The notes under the pieces were generated by a model. The model had not been told where the DNA came from and made no database searches. It saw only the letters and a program-made list of their open reading frames with translations. Of a stretch of 64,000 nt of DNA, positions 24,743-30,629 are shown one piece after another (positions within the stretch are counted from its first letter, which is position 1; the number at the start of each line of letters is the position of its first letter). A program made the position numbers and the translations under genes. Origin of the DNA: Candidatus Thorarchaeota archaeon (GTDB lineage: Archaea; Asgardarchaeota; Thorarchaeia; Thorarchaeales; Thorarchaeaceae); assembly GCA_963726195.1 (NCBI GenBank), contig CAVSBO010000017.1:1-64000 (forward strand). The letters run 5' to 3'.

Positions 24743-26230
24743 GACGGCTTCTTTCGTACCCAGCGAAGCATAGCGATGACGAAGACGACACTCCCAACGG
24801 CACCGATTATGATGAACGGGGCATACACTATCAATGGGTTAGTAGGCCAGATTGAGTCTAGGACTAATCCCGCCGCTTTCCAAGAGTCTGCAATGCCAGT
24901 CAGGTGTTGAGATATGATTGAAAAGTTGTAGGCACCTAGTGCAAGGGCGGATGTCAGATTCCCAGTGGAGTTGTACGCATCGATTACGTGATGGAATGTA
25001 TTTGATATGATGCCTTCATGCGGGCTAATGTCAAAGGGATTTACCAAGCTTCTGTTGTCAGCTAGGGCCTCAAAGTGCGGCAGTGCCTCTCTTGCTTCTG
25101 TGTCAAAGGTTGTGAGATCAAATCCGGTCATGAATGAAGAGAATCTCTCAAGTGCAGCTCTGAAGGAAAGGTACTGAAGAGTTGTTTGAGCCTCCAATCC
25201 TAGGCCTATGAAGAGGAGGAGAAGCGCTTTGTTTTGCACTTCATTCGGGATTCCATTGAAGACTTTCAGGTAGGAAGACAGACCATCGGGAGTCATGTCA
25301 GAACTCATTCTCCTCCACGCACCCTCACCGAACCCCCAGATGTACCCGTATGGACTCCCCGGAGCATACGAGGAAGAACTGCCTAACAGTCTGTTCTCGG
25401 ACATACGGACCGAGGTGAGATGGCACGTCTTCGACGGGAGTTCCGCCCGGCCGAAGCAGTACGCTAATCCACTCTCGGCTGCCCCAGGCCAGACCCAAGC
25501 TGGTATAACTGATCTTTGTGTAGTTTCCTCTGCCGTCAATCGGATAGCTGAAGTTGACCCCGAAGGAACCCACACCCGGATCAATCATCGTCGCGGCGCC
25601 CTCTGTGTCGTTGTAGCCTACTATCACAACACCGTGAGCACCACCGCTGCTGTTCTGCGCTCTGAGTATGTCGTAATCATGTTCAGGTAGCCATCGAGGA
25701 TCGACACTGACGATAAGCGGGTACCCTTCGTCAATCACATTTTTCATCAGCTGCATAGCTTCTTCCTGACTCGAAAGCAATGCTACGTTAATTCCTTCAG
25801 AATTCAAGTACTGGACTTCACTGTCAACGCCTGGAATTCCTGAACCCAAGTAGACAGTCTGGTTGACACCGTACAGATCTGCGAGAAACTCCGTCGGTTC
25901 AACCTGTTGATAGAGAGCGCCGGGAAACATGAGCAGCGTGTCATTATAACGGACGTATGCAAACGAGAAACCAACACCGGTTAGGGCCAGCACATCATGC
26001 AAATCGAGGTGCAGTCCTAAGTACTGTAGCACAATCGAAACCGTCGCCCATTGGCACAGACCGTTTATCTCCTGCCAGACATAGGGCACACCTCTGATAA
26101 CTTTCTCTCCAATTGCGGCAAGGGCGTGCGTACCCATTGGTTCCCCTGAATTGACGCCATAACTGACATTTACGACAGGCAGGGCGCCCAAAATGACTAT
26201 AACAAGGAAAGTCGCTGCGAGGTATTTCAC
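24736..26230 (-). CDS. Secreted, membrane-anchored C39-like (papain-fold) cysteine peptidase; indel near 25360
   Basis: VPYVWQEINGLCQWATVSIVLQYLG (Q..C), GYPLIV, GAHGVVIVGY, IDPG. Has an N-terminal signal and a C-terminal TM. Confidence 0.75.
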
Positions 26231-26358
26231 TGTTGGTCGATGACGAATCTCGTCTCATGCGAACATAATCGTTTTCATCTGGGACAAACGGTGCCCTCTT
26301 CGAAAACCCTTATTCGTCAATGTGCTGGGAGCCCGCTTGAAAGCGAGGCCTCCCTGCA

Positions 26359-26538
26359 TTGAACTATCACTTAGTGCTCACAAGGCAGTGCAACCTCAAT
26401 TGCACCTATTGTCACGGAGGGGAGGAGTACGGACCCGATACTGAGCTACAATACTCCCTTGATGACCTTGCTTCATTCTTGAGCAGCGACAAAGATGTCC
26501 AATTGATGCTTTACGGAGGAGAAGAGATTTTGAAGTAA
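26359..26538 (+). pseudogene. Displaced original 5' end (59 aa) of the radical SAM gene, truncated at attL
   Basis: TTG start after GCGAGG. Translates as LNYHLVLTRQCNLNCTYCHGGEEYGPDTELQYSLDDLASFLSSDKDVQLMLYGGEEILK*, homologous to the start of 28906-29991. Confidence 0.9.
26512..26519 (+). repeat. attL core TACGGAGG
   Basis: tgcttTACGGAGGaga here versus tgctcTACGGAGGgga at 29062. Similarity between the two 5' copies ends here. Confidence 0.8.
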
Positions 26539-26564
26539 TGCTCGCACACAACCGTTATTAGCCG

Positions 26565-27776
26565 TTGGTGCCATACAATCGCCGAATAAAAATAACAGCC
26601 GAAGAAGACCAGGCATTCGCTAGTTGGTGCCGAGGCAACCTGTCGGTGGTGCCGGTCGACAAGACCGTCGACAATAAGACGAAGCTATTGCATATCCTGG
26701 TGAACAGCTACGGATTGGATCTCCAGAATCCAGACCCTGAGACCGTGGTTGCGAATATCACGAAGGCCCGGATATCCGCAAGGAGCATGAAGACGTACAA
26801 GACTGTGTTCAAGCAGTGGCTCCAATCAAGAGGTATTGAGATATCCGACAAGGTGAAGGCAGGGCTCAAGCACCGAAACGGTCAGAGGGTCAGAATCACA
26901 CATCCCAATGACCTGGTCAGCAGAGAAGAACTGTCAGATATCATAGAGCACACGACAAGCCAAGTACTGAAGACGTACCTCTTGGTCCTCTACGATACTG
27001 CAGGCAGACCAAGAGCAGTCTGCAAGCTGGATATATCAGATGTGACACAGGACAAATATGGATTCATCCTCAACTTCAGACACGTCAAGACCGAGCAATC
27101 ACAAAGACCGGTGCGGCTGATAGACCCATTGGCAATCAGACATTTAGAGATATGGCTCTCGATCCATCCACGAAACAAAGAATCAGACGCGCCGTGGTTT
27201 CTGAATCGCTTGGGACGAAGATTCCGAGTTGAATCGGTCCTGAGCATTCTACGTGCATATCACAACGAACGACTAGGACGAGGCAATGGCGGGAAGGCAT
27301 CTCTCTCTCCTTATCTCTTCAGGAAAAGTCGAGCAACCCAACTCCTGAGAGAGCGGCTATTGTCGGATGTTGAGGTCAGACAGAGACTGGGTCACAACAA
27401 AGATAGTCGGATCCTCGAGTCGTACTACGACATCAGAGATGAACAGGACCAGCAAAAGGCCGAATTGAGAGCCATGGGAATCGTGGAGGTCGAGAATAAA
27501 CCCTCGCAAAGAATCTGTCCTAATTGCTCCATGCTGAATGAAGCAGCTGCTGCAGAGTGTCTCCGATGTAGACATCCTCTGACAGAAGAGGCCATGATTA
27601 AGCAACAGAGGGCTGCTATTGAAAGCGTTCAACAGAAGACAGCTCTTGAGACGATCAAGACTCTGCTTTCCGATCCTAAGACATTCAAAGTGCTGGCATC
27701 CGCGTTTGGCGAAGCCCTCGCGAATGAAAAGAGAGCAGAGAAGAAAGACCAATCTAAGGCTGATGAGACCGACTAG
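26565..27776 (+). CDS. Tyrosine recombinase/integrase with C-terminal zinc ribbon
   Basis: LYDTAGR (catalytic R), KT, SPYLFRKSRAT (HxxR variant), RLGH, catalytic Y in ESYY, CPNC...CLRC. Confidence 0.92.
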   Translation: MVPYNRRIKITAEEDQAFASWCRGNLSVVPVDKTVDNKTKLLHILVNSYGLDLQNPDPETVVANITKARISARSMKTYKTVFKQWLQSRGIEISDKVKAGLKHRNGQRVRITHPNDLVSREELSDIIEHTTSQVLKTYLLVLYDTAGRPRAVCKLDISDVTQDKYGFILNFRHVKTEQSQRPVRLIDPLAIRHLEIWLSIHPRNKESDAPWFLNRLGRRFRVESVLSILRAYHNERLGRGNGGKASLSPYLFRKSRATQLLRERLLSDVEVRQRLGHNKDSRILESYYDIRDEQDQQKAELRAMGIVEVENKPSQRICPNCSMLNEAAAAECLRCRHPLTEEAMIKQQRAAIESVQQKTALETIKTLLSDPKTFKVLASAFGEALANEKRAEKKDQSKADETD

Positions 27777-28036
27777 AAAAGCTTCCTCAAGCCTAGCACT
27801 AATTCTTGCTGTTTGGACAGATTCGACGATGCATCATCCAAGTATCGGACGACATAGTCACGGATGCCTGGATCCTCGGCAGAGACCCGCTGTAGGAATC
27901 TAGACCCTATCTCTTCTTCTAAGGCTAGGAATACGTACTTGAGTGACAGGCCATAGAAGTACTCTAGGAAGCTCTCTGCCGAGACCGGCTTGAGCAGTGC
28001 AGACATTGCGGCTGGCTGAGTTTTGAGACTGGTCAT
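27773..28036 (-). CDS. Hypothetical protein (element cargo)
   Basis: 87-aa ORF convergent with the integrase, stop codons overlapping. Confidence 0.5.
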   Translation of the reverse strand: MTSLKTQPAAMSALLKPVSAESFLEYFYGLSLKYVFLALEEEIGSRFLQRVSAEDPGIRDYVVRYLDDASSNLSKQQELVLGLRKLF

Positions 28037-28105
28037 TCGGCTGGCAGATGTAGCTATGGCTCAAAGGATGACAAAGAAAGCCATGAAGAAGGGTCTGAGC
28101 TCCTA

Positions 28106-28309
28106 TTGCTGGACATAGACCGCATTCTCTACTCCACGCCAGATGCGCTCAAGATCCAGTTGCCCGACAGGACGTACTTCTGGGTGCCGAAGTCAATCAC
28201 TGATTCCGAACACAGGATACCGAGATGGTTCGTAGAAGCAAAGGGTCTTCTGCCCTACTTGAAGAGCAAGCTTACATACAGTCAGCGGAAACTTGAGGAG
28301 TTCTTCTAG
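28106..28309 (+). CDS. Small hypothetical protein resembling phage W-x-P-K-S proteins
   Basis: STPDALKI...FWVPKS...IPRWFVEAKGL. The family resemblance is recalled, not searched. Confidence 0.55.
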   Translation: MLDIDRILYSTPDALKIQLPDRTYFWVPKSITDSEHRIPRWFVEAKGLLPYLKSKLTYSQRKLEEFF

Positions 28310-28323
28310 CAAGTCGTTGGTAA

Positions 28324-28579
28324 TTCACGCTCTTTGCCAATTGTGGGAGAAGCGAACTGATCGAGCCACACCGCCTCGCCGTGCATCACGTCGACGGTGA
28401 CAAGATGCAGGGATGCAAAGGCTCAAAATGGTTTGGGTTGGGCGGGCAAGTGGTTCCTTGTTCCTCTCTGTCGTTCCTGTCATGCCAAAGGATTGGAAAG
28501 AGATGTCTACTCCGTGGGAGAATTCTGGCTTGCAGAACTGGCTAGGCGATACTCGGAGAGGAGAGTTGCAATACAATGA
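28324..28579 (+). pseudogene. HNH endonuclease remnant (frameshifted, no clear start)
   Basis: FANCGRSE...RLAVHHVDGDKMQGC in one frame and KWFLVPLCRSCHAK in another. Confidence 0.7.
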
Positions 28580-28800
28580 AGAAAAAATGGACCCAGAAAG
28601 CGACTAATCCTGAACTCGAAGGCGCGTTCAGGCGTGACGTCAAAGCACGGTACGGGAAAAAGGGCTTCACCAAGTCCGGCTCGATCAAGAAGTCCGTTCT
28701 AACGGAGTTGTCTCGAGACAAGAACAAGCGGACCGACAAGACCACCAAGGTCGCCCGTAGGGCCCGTTTCGCCCTGAACGCACGCAAACGCAGGAAATAG
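28576..28800 (+). CDS. Small, highly basic (Lys/Arg-rich) protein, virus-like
   Basis: MKKKWTQKA...GAF...RRARFALNARKRRK. Its ATGA overlaps the previous stop. Confidence 0.75.
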   Translation: MKKKWTQKATNPELEGAFRRDVKARYGKKGFTKSGSIKKSVLTELSRDKNKRTDKTTKVARRARFALNARKRRK

Positions 28801-28850
28801 TTGGCGCGCGCCAACTCGCTTGATCAGCGTTGGGGAGCCACGACTCCCCA
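28799..28850. repeat. Cluster of palindromes/hairpins at the element's right end
   Basis: Perfect 18-bp palindrome AGTTGGCGCGCGCCAACT (28799-28816), CGCT-tgatc-AGCG, and TGGGGAG-ccacga-CTCCCCA (28831-28850). Confidence 0.75.
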
Positions 28851-28905
28851 CTACTTCTCACAATGCTCTAATATCACAACCTCATGCCTATCAACCCGAC
28901 CACCG

Positions 28906-29991
28906 ATGAATTATCATATCGTGCTCACCAGGCAGTGCAATCTGAACTGTGTCTATTGTCGCGGCGGAGAAGAGCACGGACCTGACACAGAACTGAGCTA
29001 TTCTCTTGACGATCTGGCATCCTTCTTAGAAAAGGACAGAACCTCCACTACGCTCCTGCTCTACGGAGGGGAGCCAACCCTACGAATACCCCTCATCACT
29101 GACGTCATGGACAAGTTCCCTGATGCTCGATTCATGCTTCAGACAAATGCCCTACGCCTGAACAAGATTCCGGAGCCTTACATCAAACGATTTCATTCAA
29201 TACTGGTGTCCATCGACGGCACGAGAGAAACAACCGATGGATATAGGTCGCGAGGCGTGTATGATCGCGTTCTCGCCAATGTCAAATGGCTCAGGAAGAT
29301 TGGCTATCAGGGAGACATCGTGGCTCGAATGGCAGTCTCACAGCGGAGTGACATCTACAGGGACGTGCACCACTTGCTGAATCTCGCGAATCCGAAGTTC
29401 GATCACGTCCACTGGCAGCTCAACGTGATCTGGGATGCAGAAGGCAACTGGACGGATTTCGACGGCTGGGTCGCAGAATCCTATAACCCAGGTATAACGA
29501 GATTAGCTAGCGATTGGGTTAAGGCGATGGATCGCGGTACTGTCGAAGGAATAGTGCCGTTTCTTCCCATTGCATATAGTCTTCTCAGCGGAAAACCTTC
29601 GCGACTCAGGTGTGGGTCTGGACTCGACACATTTGCAGTCCACGTCGACGGGTCAATTGGTGTATGTCCCATATCACCAGACTGGCCGTTCTCAATTGTG
29701 GGTAACATACGCACAACCAACCCAAGTCTACTGAGGGACACAATGACTGTGGATGAACCATGTCCGTCTTGCGATGAGTTTGCAGTTTGTGGAGGGAGAT
29801 GTCTGTTTGCAAACAAGGAAAGACTGTGGGGGGAAAGTGGCTTTCAGAAAGTCTGCGATACCGTGAGGCATCTAATCGAAAGCCTTCGCATCGAGATGCC
29901 GCACGTGCGCGAGCTGATCGAAAAAGGAATTGTCAACGAAGAGGACTTCAACTATCCCGAGTTCAACAATGGTTGCGAGATTATCCCCTAG
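28906..29991 (+). CDS. Radical SAM/SPASM protein (AF0577/TIGR04084-like), reconstituted from an element-derived 5' end and the host 3' end
   Basis: CNLNCVYC, YGGEP, QTN, SIDG, SPASM cysteines (CGSG...CP...CPSC...CGGRC), C-terminal NGCEIIP. Confidence 0.92.
   Translation: MNYHIVLTRQCNLNCVYCRGGEEHGPDTELSYSLDDLASFLEKDRTSTTLLLYGGEPTLRIPLITDVMDKFPDARFMLQTNALRLNKIPEPYIKRFHSILVSIDGTRETTDGYRSRGVYDRVLANVKWLRKIGYQGDIVARMAVSQRSDIYRDVHHLLNLANPKFDHVHWQLNVIWDAEGNWTDFDGWVAESYNPGITRLASDWVKAMDRGTVEGIVPFLPIAYSLLSGKPSRLRCGSGLDTFAVHVDGSIGVCPISPDWPFSIVGNIRTTNPSLLRDTMTVDEPCPSCDEFAVCGGRCLFANKERLWGESGFQKVCDTVRHLIESLRIEMPHVRELIEKGIVNEEDFNYPEFNNGCEIIP
29062..29069 (+). repeat. attR core TACGGAGG
   Basis: Direct repeat of 26512-26519 at the homologous YGG codons. 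Confidence 0.8.
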
Positions 29992-30530
29992 ACATCCTCT
30001 TCTTCGCCTTCTTGTTCTGACTCGTATAGGTCCTTCTGCATCACCATTAGTTCTGTGCCTGAACCCTGACGGCCTTCGATGGGTTTGTAACCGATGCCCT
30101 CATAAAACTTGGTTTGGGAACCCATTGCACTGACGACTTCGAGCTGAACGGTTTTGGCCCCCATGTGAGTGAGCAGATTCTCAGCGTATTCGACGAGAAA
30201 GGTACCGACGCGTCTATTGCGGAATTTCTCAAGAACACCGATACGGCTTATCGTACCCGTCTGACCCTGAAGCTGCACACGCATAGTTCCAACAATTGAG
30301 TCCCCAATGATTGCCACGTACACATTCCCCATCTGAATTGCACGTGATATCTTGTCAAGACCATCCTGCAGCGCGAGAGGCTCCTTGGTTTGGCGCTTCC
30401 TAACGCCGCCGTAAGCCTCTTGGAGAATGGACCGAACAGTGTCCACTTCTCCGAGATCCGCACGACGGATTGAAACTTCAGCATAATCATACATGGCGGG
30501 CCCGACCTTCGGTGAGCTGTTATCCTTCAA
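29988..30530 (-). CDS. GNAT family N-acetyltransferase
   Basis: IGVLEKFRNRRVGTFL, KFYEGIGY. Confidence 0.88.
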   Translation of the reverse strand: MKDNSSPKVGPAMYDYAEVSIRRADLGEVDTVRSILQEAYGGVRKRQTKEPLALQDGLDKISRAIQMGNVYVAIIGDSIVGTMRVQLQGQTGTISRIGVLEKFRNRRVGTFLVEYAENLLTHMGAKTVQLEVVSAMGSQTKFYEGIGYKPIEGRQGSGTELMVMQKDLYESEQEGEEEDV

Positions 30531-30629
30531 GGGGACAATTCAGACATAAAGTAATTGGACTGGGACAAAAAGACCGCCTGTCTACGCCCATAGGACACCG
30601 ATGAGCATAAGACATGGGCCTAGTTGAGC

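Follow-up and report, generated by a model that had tools for sequence, protein, structure and literature searches.

The DNA examined here, hereafter the window, is a 64,000-nucleotide stretch of a Candidatus Thorarchaeota archaeon (assembly GCA_963726195.1, contig CAVSBO010000017.1, positions 1 to 64,000) in which the 5' end of a gene for a radical S-adenosylmethionine (SAM)/SPASM enzyme occurs twice, once as a short orphan and once at the head of a complete gene, with a small integrase-encoding element in between; all features lie on the forward strand unless stated otherwise. The orphan open reading frame (ORF) at 26359-26538, which gives a partial Pfam Radical_SAM match, starts at a TTG codon, continues through LNYHLVLTRQCNLNCTYCHGG and CNLNCTYC for 53 codons to ...LMLYGG, and reaches a stop after five further, element-encoded codons (EEILK). 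The gene of a tyrosine integrase of 403 amino acids (aa) follows at 26565-27776, and an ATG (MNYH) at 28906 opens the working hybrid gene of 361 aa (28906-29991). We conclude that a small tyrosine-recombinase element has very probably integrated at the YGG codons of this core gene and replaced its 5' end.

The two joints are marked by an 8-bp core, TACGGAGG, whose copies at 26512-26519 (attL) and 29062-29069 (attR) are exactly 2,550 bp apart and identical at 8/8 positions. The core encodes Tyr-Gly-Gly directly 5' of the SAM-binding GGE motif (orthologues read TAYGGNGG at this position), and the resemblance of the left and right 5' copies breaks off directly after it. The body of the element (26520-29061) is 2,542 bp long, or 2,550 bp including one core. 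The whole metagenome-assembled genome (MAG; 88.9% complete, 3.9% contamination) holds only these two copies of the 5' end and, by a search of the genome, one copy of the element DNA, which was not found in three other species or genomes of the same genus, and the arrangement is therefore not due to chance. In GC content the element cannot be distinguished from its flanks. In-silico excision, joining the left 5' end and core to position 29070 onward, gives ...MLYGGEPTLR with the frame kept. The junction sequence of the empty site (attB) is ATGCTTTACGGAGGGGAGCCAACC, and that predicted for the circular form (attP) is CTGCTCTACGGAGGAGAAGAGATT. The ORF coordinates, the stop after YGG, the 8-bp repeat, its 2,550-bp spacing, the in-frame fusion and the identity of 36 of the first 41 residues between the two copies had been given in an earlier, sequence-only reading of this DNA, and all were confirmed, the last by direct count; its proposal of an integrase-borne insertion at YGG(E) that makes an orphan of the native 5' end and brings in a substitute with its own CxxxCxxC likewise finds support in this anatomy.

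The interrupted gene belongs to TIGR04084, and the family assignment to AF0577 made at that time is borne out by a score of 369 bits against a cut-off of 225. The hybrid product of 361 aa is full length, covering profile positions 2-347 of 347, with both CxxxCxxC and the C-terminal Cys-rich domain present, and a TIGR04084 radical SAM gene was found in 36/36 family genomes searched. DNA identity between the left and right 5' segments is 67%, and protein identity 76%, in a gapped alignment. A comparison of synonymous and non-synonymous change between them, as suggested earlier, finds saturation at synonymous sites (proportion of differences, pS, 0.87) but not at non-synonymous ones (pN 0.18), so that the right copy is no recent duplicate and both copies have long evolved as coding sequence. 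The orphan is still free of stops and frameshifts, which argues that the insertion is recent.

The integrase matches PF00589 over residues 123-292 (48.4 bits, cut-off 27.1) and phrog_1 (integrase; E 2.8e-15). Its start, a TTG or GTG, lies 26 nt 3' of the orphan stop and 46 nt 3' of the core. In an alignment of the window protein with nine relatives, R148, K175, R253, R256 and Y287/Y288 do not vary, H277 occurs in 9/10 sequences, the four cysteines of a C-terminal CxxC...CxxC zinc ribbon are conserved, and Y250 occupies the place where the first His would be expected; the catalytic roles of these residues are thus assigned from the alignment as candidates. A search with phmmer against Protein Data Bank sequences gave no match, and it was the fold search alone that did: an AlphaFold2 model (mean predicted local distance difference test score 80.6) aligns over some 300 residues with XerA (5hxy, E 1e-7) and with Cre (2hoi, E 2e-7). 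The protein is related to archaeal XerA, but identity with that family (NF040815) was rejected, the score being 41 bits against an equivalog cut-off of 220. Because the Pfam score is above its cut-off, the catalytic candidates are conserved and the modelled fold is like those of XerA and Cre, we regard the protein as a bona fide tyrosine recombinase with predicted recombination activity. The closest relatives found for it among 5.8 billion proteins are 48-55% identical, and the known ones come from Thorarchaeota or from metagenome contigs; single-protein scans of the genome-contig and viral-contig sets and a profile scan of the viral contigs gave no match.

Which of the two 5' ends is native can be judged from the closest genome of the same genus, G002, where the gene order is an upstream gene of 301 aa, 128 bp of spacer, the radical SAM gene and a GNAT gene. 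In the window 128 bp also separate the divergent upstream gene from the left fragment, this spacer (26231-26358, the presumed native promoter) aligns with that of G002, the left fragment shares the TTG start of G002, and the synteny of the radical SAM and GNAT genes is conserved. Over the aligned 5' segment the left fragment is 92.6% identical to the G002 orthologue in protein and 79.6% in DNA, and the gene after YGG is 82% and 77% identical, but for the right 5' end the values drop to 74% and 67%. The right end (28906-29061, ending ...KDRTSTTLLLYGG), which we call type B as opposed to the type-A end of the left copy, also has one extra codon and a ...(D/E)RTxxT.L.YGG signature, found elsewhere in genus g12, in G018 and G035 and in two genomes with relics of similar insertions, G011 and G032, and the region upstream of it does not align with the native spacer. 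In a tree of the remainder of the gene the window is sister to G002 (Shimodaira-Hasegawa-like approximate likelihood-ratio support 98). A tree of the 5' segment, built on 162 columns, groups the left copy with G002 (93/97) and puts the right copy in a type-B group of genus g12 and other replaced genes, split 88/88 from genus g1, and is supportive, not decisive, for a foreign right end. Taken together, these comparisons identify the left copy as native and the right 5' end as foreign.

Direct evidence for the uninterrupted site comes from public metagenomes. Contigs of four runs (X1-X4) from the Logan collection, assembled with k=31, were placed on positions 25600-30600 of the window. One contig of the peat run X3 follows 26233-26511 with 2 differences and then jumps to 29062, skipping exactly 2,550 bp, with 8 letters, those of the core, that fit on either side of the joint. 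This joint is an empty attB site; the contig is 99% identical to the present strain and retains the left copy. An assembly with k=31 cannot create a join across an 8-bp repeat, so the join is not an assembly product. Contigs of the element, each with at most 4 differences from the window, are present in that run as well, and occupied and empty forms therefore co-occur in one sample. The earlier expectation that excision would restore an intact gene accordingly agrees both with the frame of the computed join and with a sequence present in nature. At the other end, attR is crossed by a contig of run X4 (29000-29200, no differences) and by one of run X1 (28685-29244, a 96% variant). At position 26386 a further contig of run X1, having matched the native flank and the start of the left fragment, goes over into 255 unlike letters, and may reflect another arrangement or another organism at this site.

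The same codons have been used by related integrases elsewhere, and the earlier suggestion to look for homologues beside split AF0577-family genes proved fruitful in two independent metagenome contigs. In L038 a radical SAM fragment ends ...MFYGGE, followed by 24 foreign codons and a stop, and an integrase 53% identical to that of the window has its ATG 70 nt after the core; L039 starts ...DDVQLMLYGG-KQ*, and a 55%-identical integrase begins 55 nt later. Both share the layout of the window: the integrase gene adjoins the junction, and the junction lies within the 5' portion of the target. When the 53-residue N-terminus was searched across the family, a second 5' fragment also came up in two other Thorarchaeota genomes, G011 and G032. 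These are integrase-less relics (L050:2641-3923 and L051:2883-4211, respectively) in which the conserved upstream gene has a type-A orphan next to it, followed by an insert of 1.1-1.3 kb and a type-B working gene. In both orphans the core codons YGG have become YEG (TACGAAGG and TACGAGGG), a change that would destroy attL. In the window a conserved left-arm block, GAAGTAATGCTCGC (26532-26545), aligns with GAGTGTATGTTCGC-like blocks that lie equally far from YGG in L038, L039, the integrase contig L040 and the G011 relic, and is a candidate integrase-binding site; the G011 relic retains the block as GAGTGT.GGTTC... together with a GACACATCATGA motif, which in L038 and L040 contains the integrase start. 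We count these as five independent events at one site, three of them still with an integrase. A weak radical SAM-like match upstream of the gene in G035 was rejected, being the C-terminal part of a hydrolase gene.

On this evidence we propose the following course of events. Crossover would occur within the core, at the YGG codons before GGE, between the chromosomal gene and an attP site that has the integrase gene on one side and, on the other, a diverged set of the first 54 codons with their own upstream DNA. Integration would strand the native promoter, with 53 codons of the native gene, as an orphan beside the integrase gene, the native promoter then facing a 59-codon orphan and behind it the integrase, and would rejoin the remaining 307 codons in frame to the 5' end of the element, the host keeping a complete enzyme. 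The hybrid gene would rely on element DNA for its transcription: the element-borne region at 28801-28905, which has no similarity to the native spacer and contains a TA-rich box, CTCTAATATCAC (28866-28877), about 30-40 nt 5' of the ATG at 28906, is a candidate promoter. Excision, of which the element may still be capable, would restore the native gene.

Several observations weigh against this account of an integrated and excisable element. Among the contigs listed, none bridges attL with at least 31 letters on each side, the best, from run X2, having its start 13 nt ahead of the junction. In runs X1-X4 no circular attP junction turned up, and the junction 24-mer is absent from IMG/VR, so that present-day excision is unproven. 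Of the two junction searches suggested earlier, then, that for the empty site succeeded and that for the circle did not, and of the two element-chromosome junctions the listed contigs bridge attR and not attL. An approximately unbiased test does not reject a placement of the right 5' end with genus g1 (p 0.32-0.34 on the same 162 columns), so that the case for a foreign origin is built on the indel, the drop in identity, the synteny and the relic pattern together. Finally, L040 carries a 52%-identical integrase and the conserved left arm without an upstream radical SAM 5' fragment, so not every relative of the integrase carries a replacement end or uses this target; this contig may be a free form or a user of another target. 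The absence of circular junctions would be expected if the insertion, though real, were a fixed fossil and the empty-site contig came from a near-identical strain that was never invaded. The relics of G011 and G032 are evidence that insertions of this kind become fixed and decay, and an ORF with an HNH-like motif in the element is frameshifted in this assembly, but that frameshift is missing in three of the runs, the integrase ORF is intact with its catalytic candidates conserved, the orphan is undecayed, the cores are still identical, and occupied and empty forms occur in one sample, the empty one at 99% identity to this strain. We consider a fossil unlikely, and hold that the element is likely, though unproven, to be mobile at present.

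The remaining explanations fare worse. The sequence-only reading saw in the two 5' ends a pair of switchable alleles, and it might be supposed that the host alternates between two functionally different N-termini or promoters through integration and excision; the two forms do differ at 13/53 aligned residues and in their upstream regions, and both were found in one sample. As a functional device, however, this idea finds no support, and we judge it improbable: the residues of the cluster- and SAM-binding motifs are all retained in both forms, type-A and type-B ends are each the sole copy in different genera, there is no sign of host regulation, and the replacement of a gene end is ordinary for integrative elements such as the dusA islands (PMC4482086). 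Because both N-termini retain CxxxCxxC and GGE, we would read the 5' replacement as damage avoidance rather than as a switch. That the structure is instead a chimeric assembly of two strains, or a tandem duplication by the host unrelated to the integrase, might be suspected of a MAG with some contamination, the more so with 95-97% variant strains in runs X1 and X3 and no independent bridge over attL among the contigs listed, but copies 67% identical in DNA are too distant for strain collapse, attR is crossed by contigs of two runs, the same architecture recurs in L038 and L039, which are independent assemblies, and in relict form in two genomes, and the empty-site join is beyond what a k=31 assembly could create; this explanation is very improbable. 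A reversed polarity, with the start at 28906 ancestral and the left fragment a decoy on an element inserted upstream, has nothing but the symmetry of the repeat in its favour and is scarcely credible, since the left copy, its TTG start and the 128-bp spacer match G002, the region upstream of the right copy does not, and the joint in run X3 retains the left copy. The possibility that 28906 was the original start, raised with the sequence-only reading, is thereby answered in the negative.

Integration of the kind known from Sulfolobus spindle-shaped viruses (SSV) has attP inside the integrase gene, which is split on integration, and targets tRNA genes. The present element resembles these fuselloviruses in its archaeal tyrosine recombinase and in a VP2-like gene among its cargo, but an SSV-type integration was rejected because the integrase gene is unsplit, the ORF at 26565-27776 being whole and the core lying 46 nt upstream of it. 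A closer parallel is found in the dusA-specific integrases of islands and prophages in Proteobacteria (Farrugia et al. 2015, PMC4482086), where likewise a conserved gene for a housekeeping enzyme is entered in its 5' part, the tyrosine integrase gene adjoins the junction, a new 5' end restores the frame and a short piece of the native 5' end stays behind as an orphan. The differences are that the host here is an archaeon and the target a TIGR04084 radical SAM gene instead of dusA, that the integrase is not related at the family level and has a C-terminal zinc ribbon, that the replaced segment includes the catalytic CxxxCxxC, and that the element measures only 2.55 kb. The elements in protein-coding genes of Thaumarchaeota (Krupovic et al. 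2019, PMC6563490) share tyrosine integrases, short att sites (8-26 bp), protein-coding targets and a repaired gene end, but all 14 cases are 3'-distal, unlike the present exchange of the 5' third of the radical SAM core, which involves upstream DNA and about 160 bp of diverged coding sequence. Within the Asgard archaea, the HeimV1 provirus of Heimdallarchaeum, for which integrated and free states were shown (Wu et al. 2022, PMC8813620), is also an integrase-mediated integrated element; it lies at a tRNA-Gly gene, has an integrase like those of Bacteroidetes phages and is a full viral genome, in contrast to the minimal element and protein-coding target described here. The principle of 5'-end replacement is thus already known from the dusA islands, and it is the host phylum, the target gene and the integrase subfamily that are new: no Asgard or other archaeal element in a radical SAM gene was found in the literature searched, in keeping with the earlier remark that none had been described in Asgard archaea.

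Integrated elements of Asgard archaea whose ends and targets are defined are scarce, the documented case in the literature found being that at a tRNA gene (PMC8813620). For the present one the exact att sites are given, and a public metagenome supplies the sequence of the empty site. Its integrase subfamily, the protein-gene target of which is predictable, offers a marker for further Thorarchaeota elements and possibly a site-specific tool for a phylum without genetics, and the relics provide direct examples of a mobile element permanently exchanging the catalytic N-terminus and promoter of a core gene. We further entertain, as quite possible though short of probable, that a YGG(E)-specific integrase lineage moves a type-B cassette, consisting of a promoter region and an Fe-S-binding N-terminus, between Thorarchaeota genera, that decay of the element fixes the foreign N-terminus, and that the element is a satellite-like hitchhiker of a VP2-encoding Asgard virus. 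The cassette would probably have come from a g12-like host. GAAAGGTACWTAGGA, present at the right ends of both relics, occurs among all loci fetched otherwise only upstream of g12 genes; this suggests that the cassette, whose upstream part includes GAAGGTAC-type motifs, contains promoter-region DNA of g12-like origin. Fixation after decay is seen directly in G011 and G032, and the type-B ends of G035 and G018 may perhaps have arisen likewise. If such traffic is real, a housekeeping enzyme becomes a mosaic by way of mobile elements.

Besides the integrase, the element carries an 87-aa ORF on the reverse strand (27773-28036) without Pfam or PHROG match, a 67-aa ORF (28106-28309) without significant family match, an ORF at 28381-28579 with an HNH-like motif (HHVDGDK ... 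LCRSCH), and a basic 74-aa protein (28576-28800) resembling fusellovirus VP2. In this assembly the frame of the HNH-like ORF shifts at base 28444, which contigs of runs X1, X2 and X3 lack and whose removal gives a single open frame, so that the frameshift may be an assembly error or a strain variant; the corrected ORF has no Pfam match, and its motif would suggest an HNH protein. The VP2-like protein passes the PF25632 cut-off only narrowly (27.3 bits against 27.0, E 4.8e-6) and matches phrog_15706 (E 2e-8); PF25632 is precomputed for 4 of its homologues, and no relative was found in IMG/VR. As there is no replication or capsid gene among the ORFs of the element, and yet a virus-type VP2-like gene, the element probably depends on another element for transfer, speculative as this is. 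A scan for sigma-70 promoters and terminators, which is not relevant to archaea, stayed at chance level.

Homologues of the VP2-like protein, 65-79% identical in aa, were observed within a conserved module encoding proteins of 407 aa, VP2, 165 aa, 1,352 aa and 575 aa (L058:1-8596, L059, L060:6781-14555 and L061), one copy of which lies inside a 400-kb contig; its large proteins are without Pfam matches. The module is possibly a new structural module of an Asgard virus or provirus, on which the mini element, sharing the VP2 gene with it, may depend, and no provirus with this module was found in the present MAG, 88.9% complete. In runs X1 and X3 contigs diverge from the window at 27996, 28585 and 28817, and the depth over 28606-28772, within the VP2 gene, is 2-3 times that of its neighbours, with contigs diverging on both sides. 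The peat samples contain modular forms of the element, or further elements that share its VP2 gene.

Some further features of the target gene and of the integrase family were noted in passing. At G021:C50:5829-6900 the radical SAM gene is split by a frameshift at residue 232/233, and in G035 (C81) and G093 (C53, C82) a second radical SAM copy lies on another contig, for which strain mixture or duplication is possible. L040 has a core-like GCTCTCGTTTGGTGAA at L040:900-1110, and the contig also holds a pair of HNH_3 genes in a 300-nt, 84% repeat. Among the more remote relatives of the integrase (L025-L037 and L042-L049, at 36-44% identity), no radical SAM fragment was found nearby. Two of these, 40-44% identical to the integrase of the window, lie directly 3' of other protein-coding sequences, one of an EamA-type transporter gene (L025:2649-3606, G033) and one of an ABC-2-like permease fragment (L027:2637-3702, G010), and the wider family may generally target protein-coding genes.

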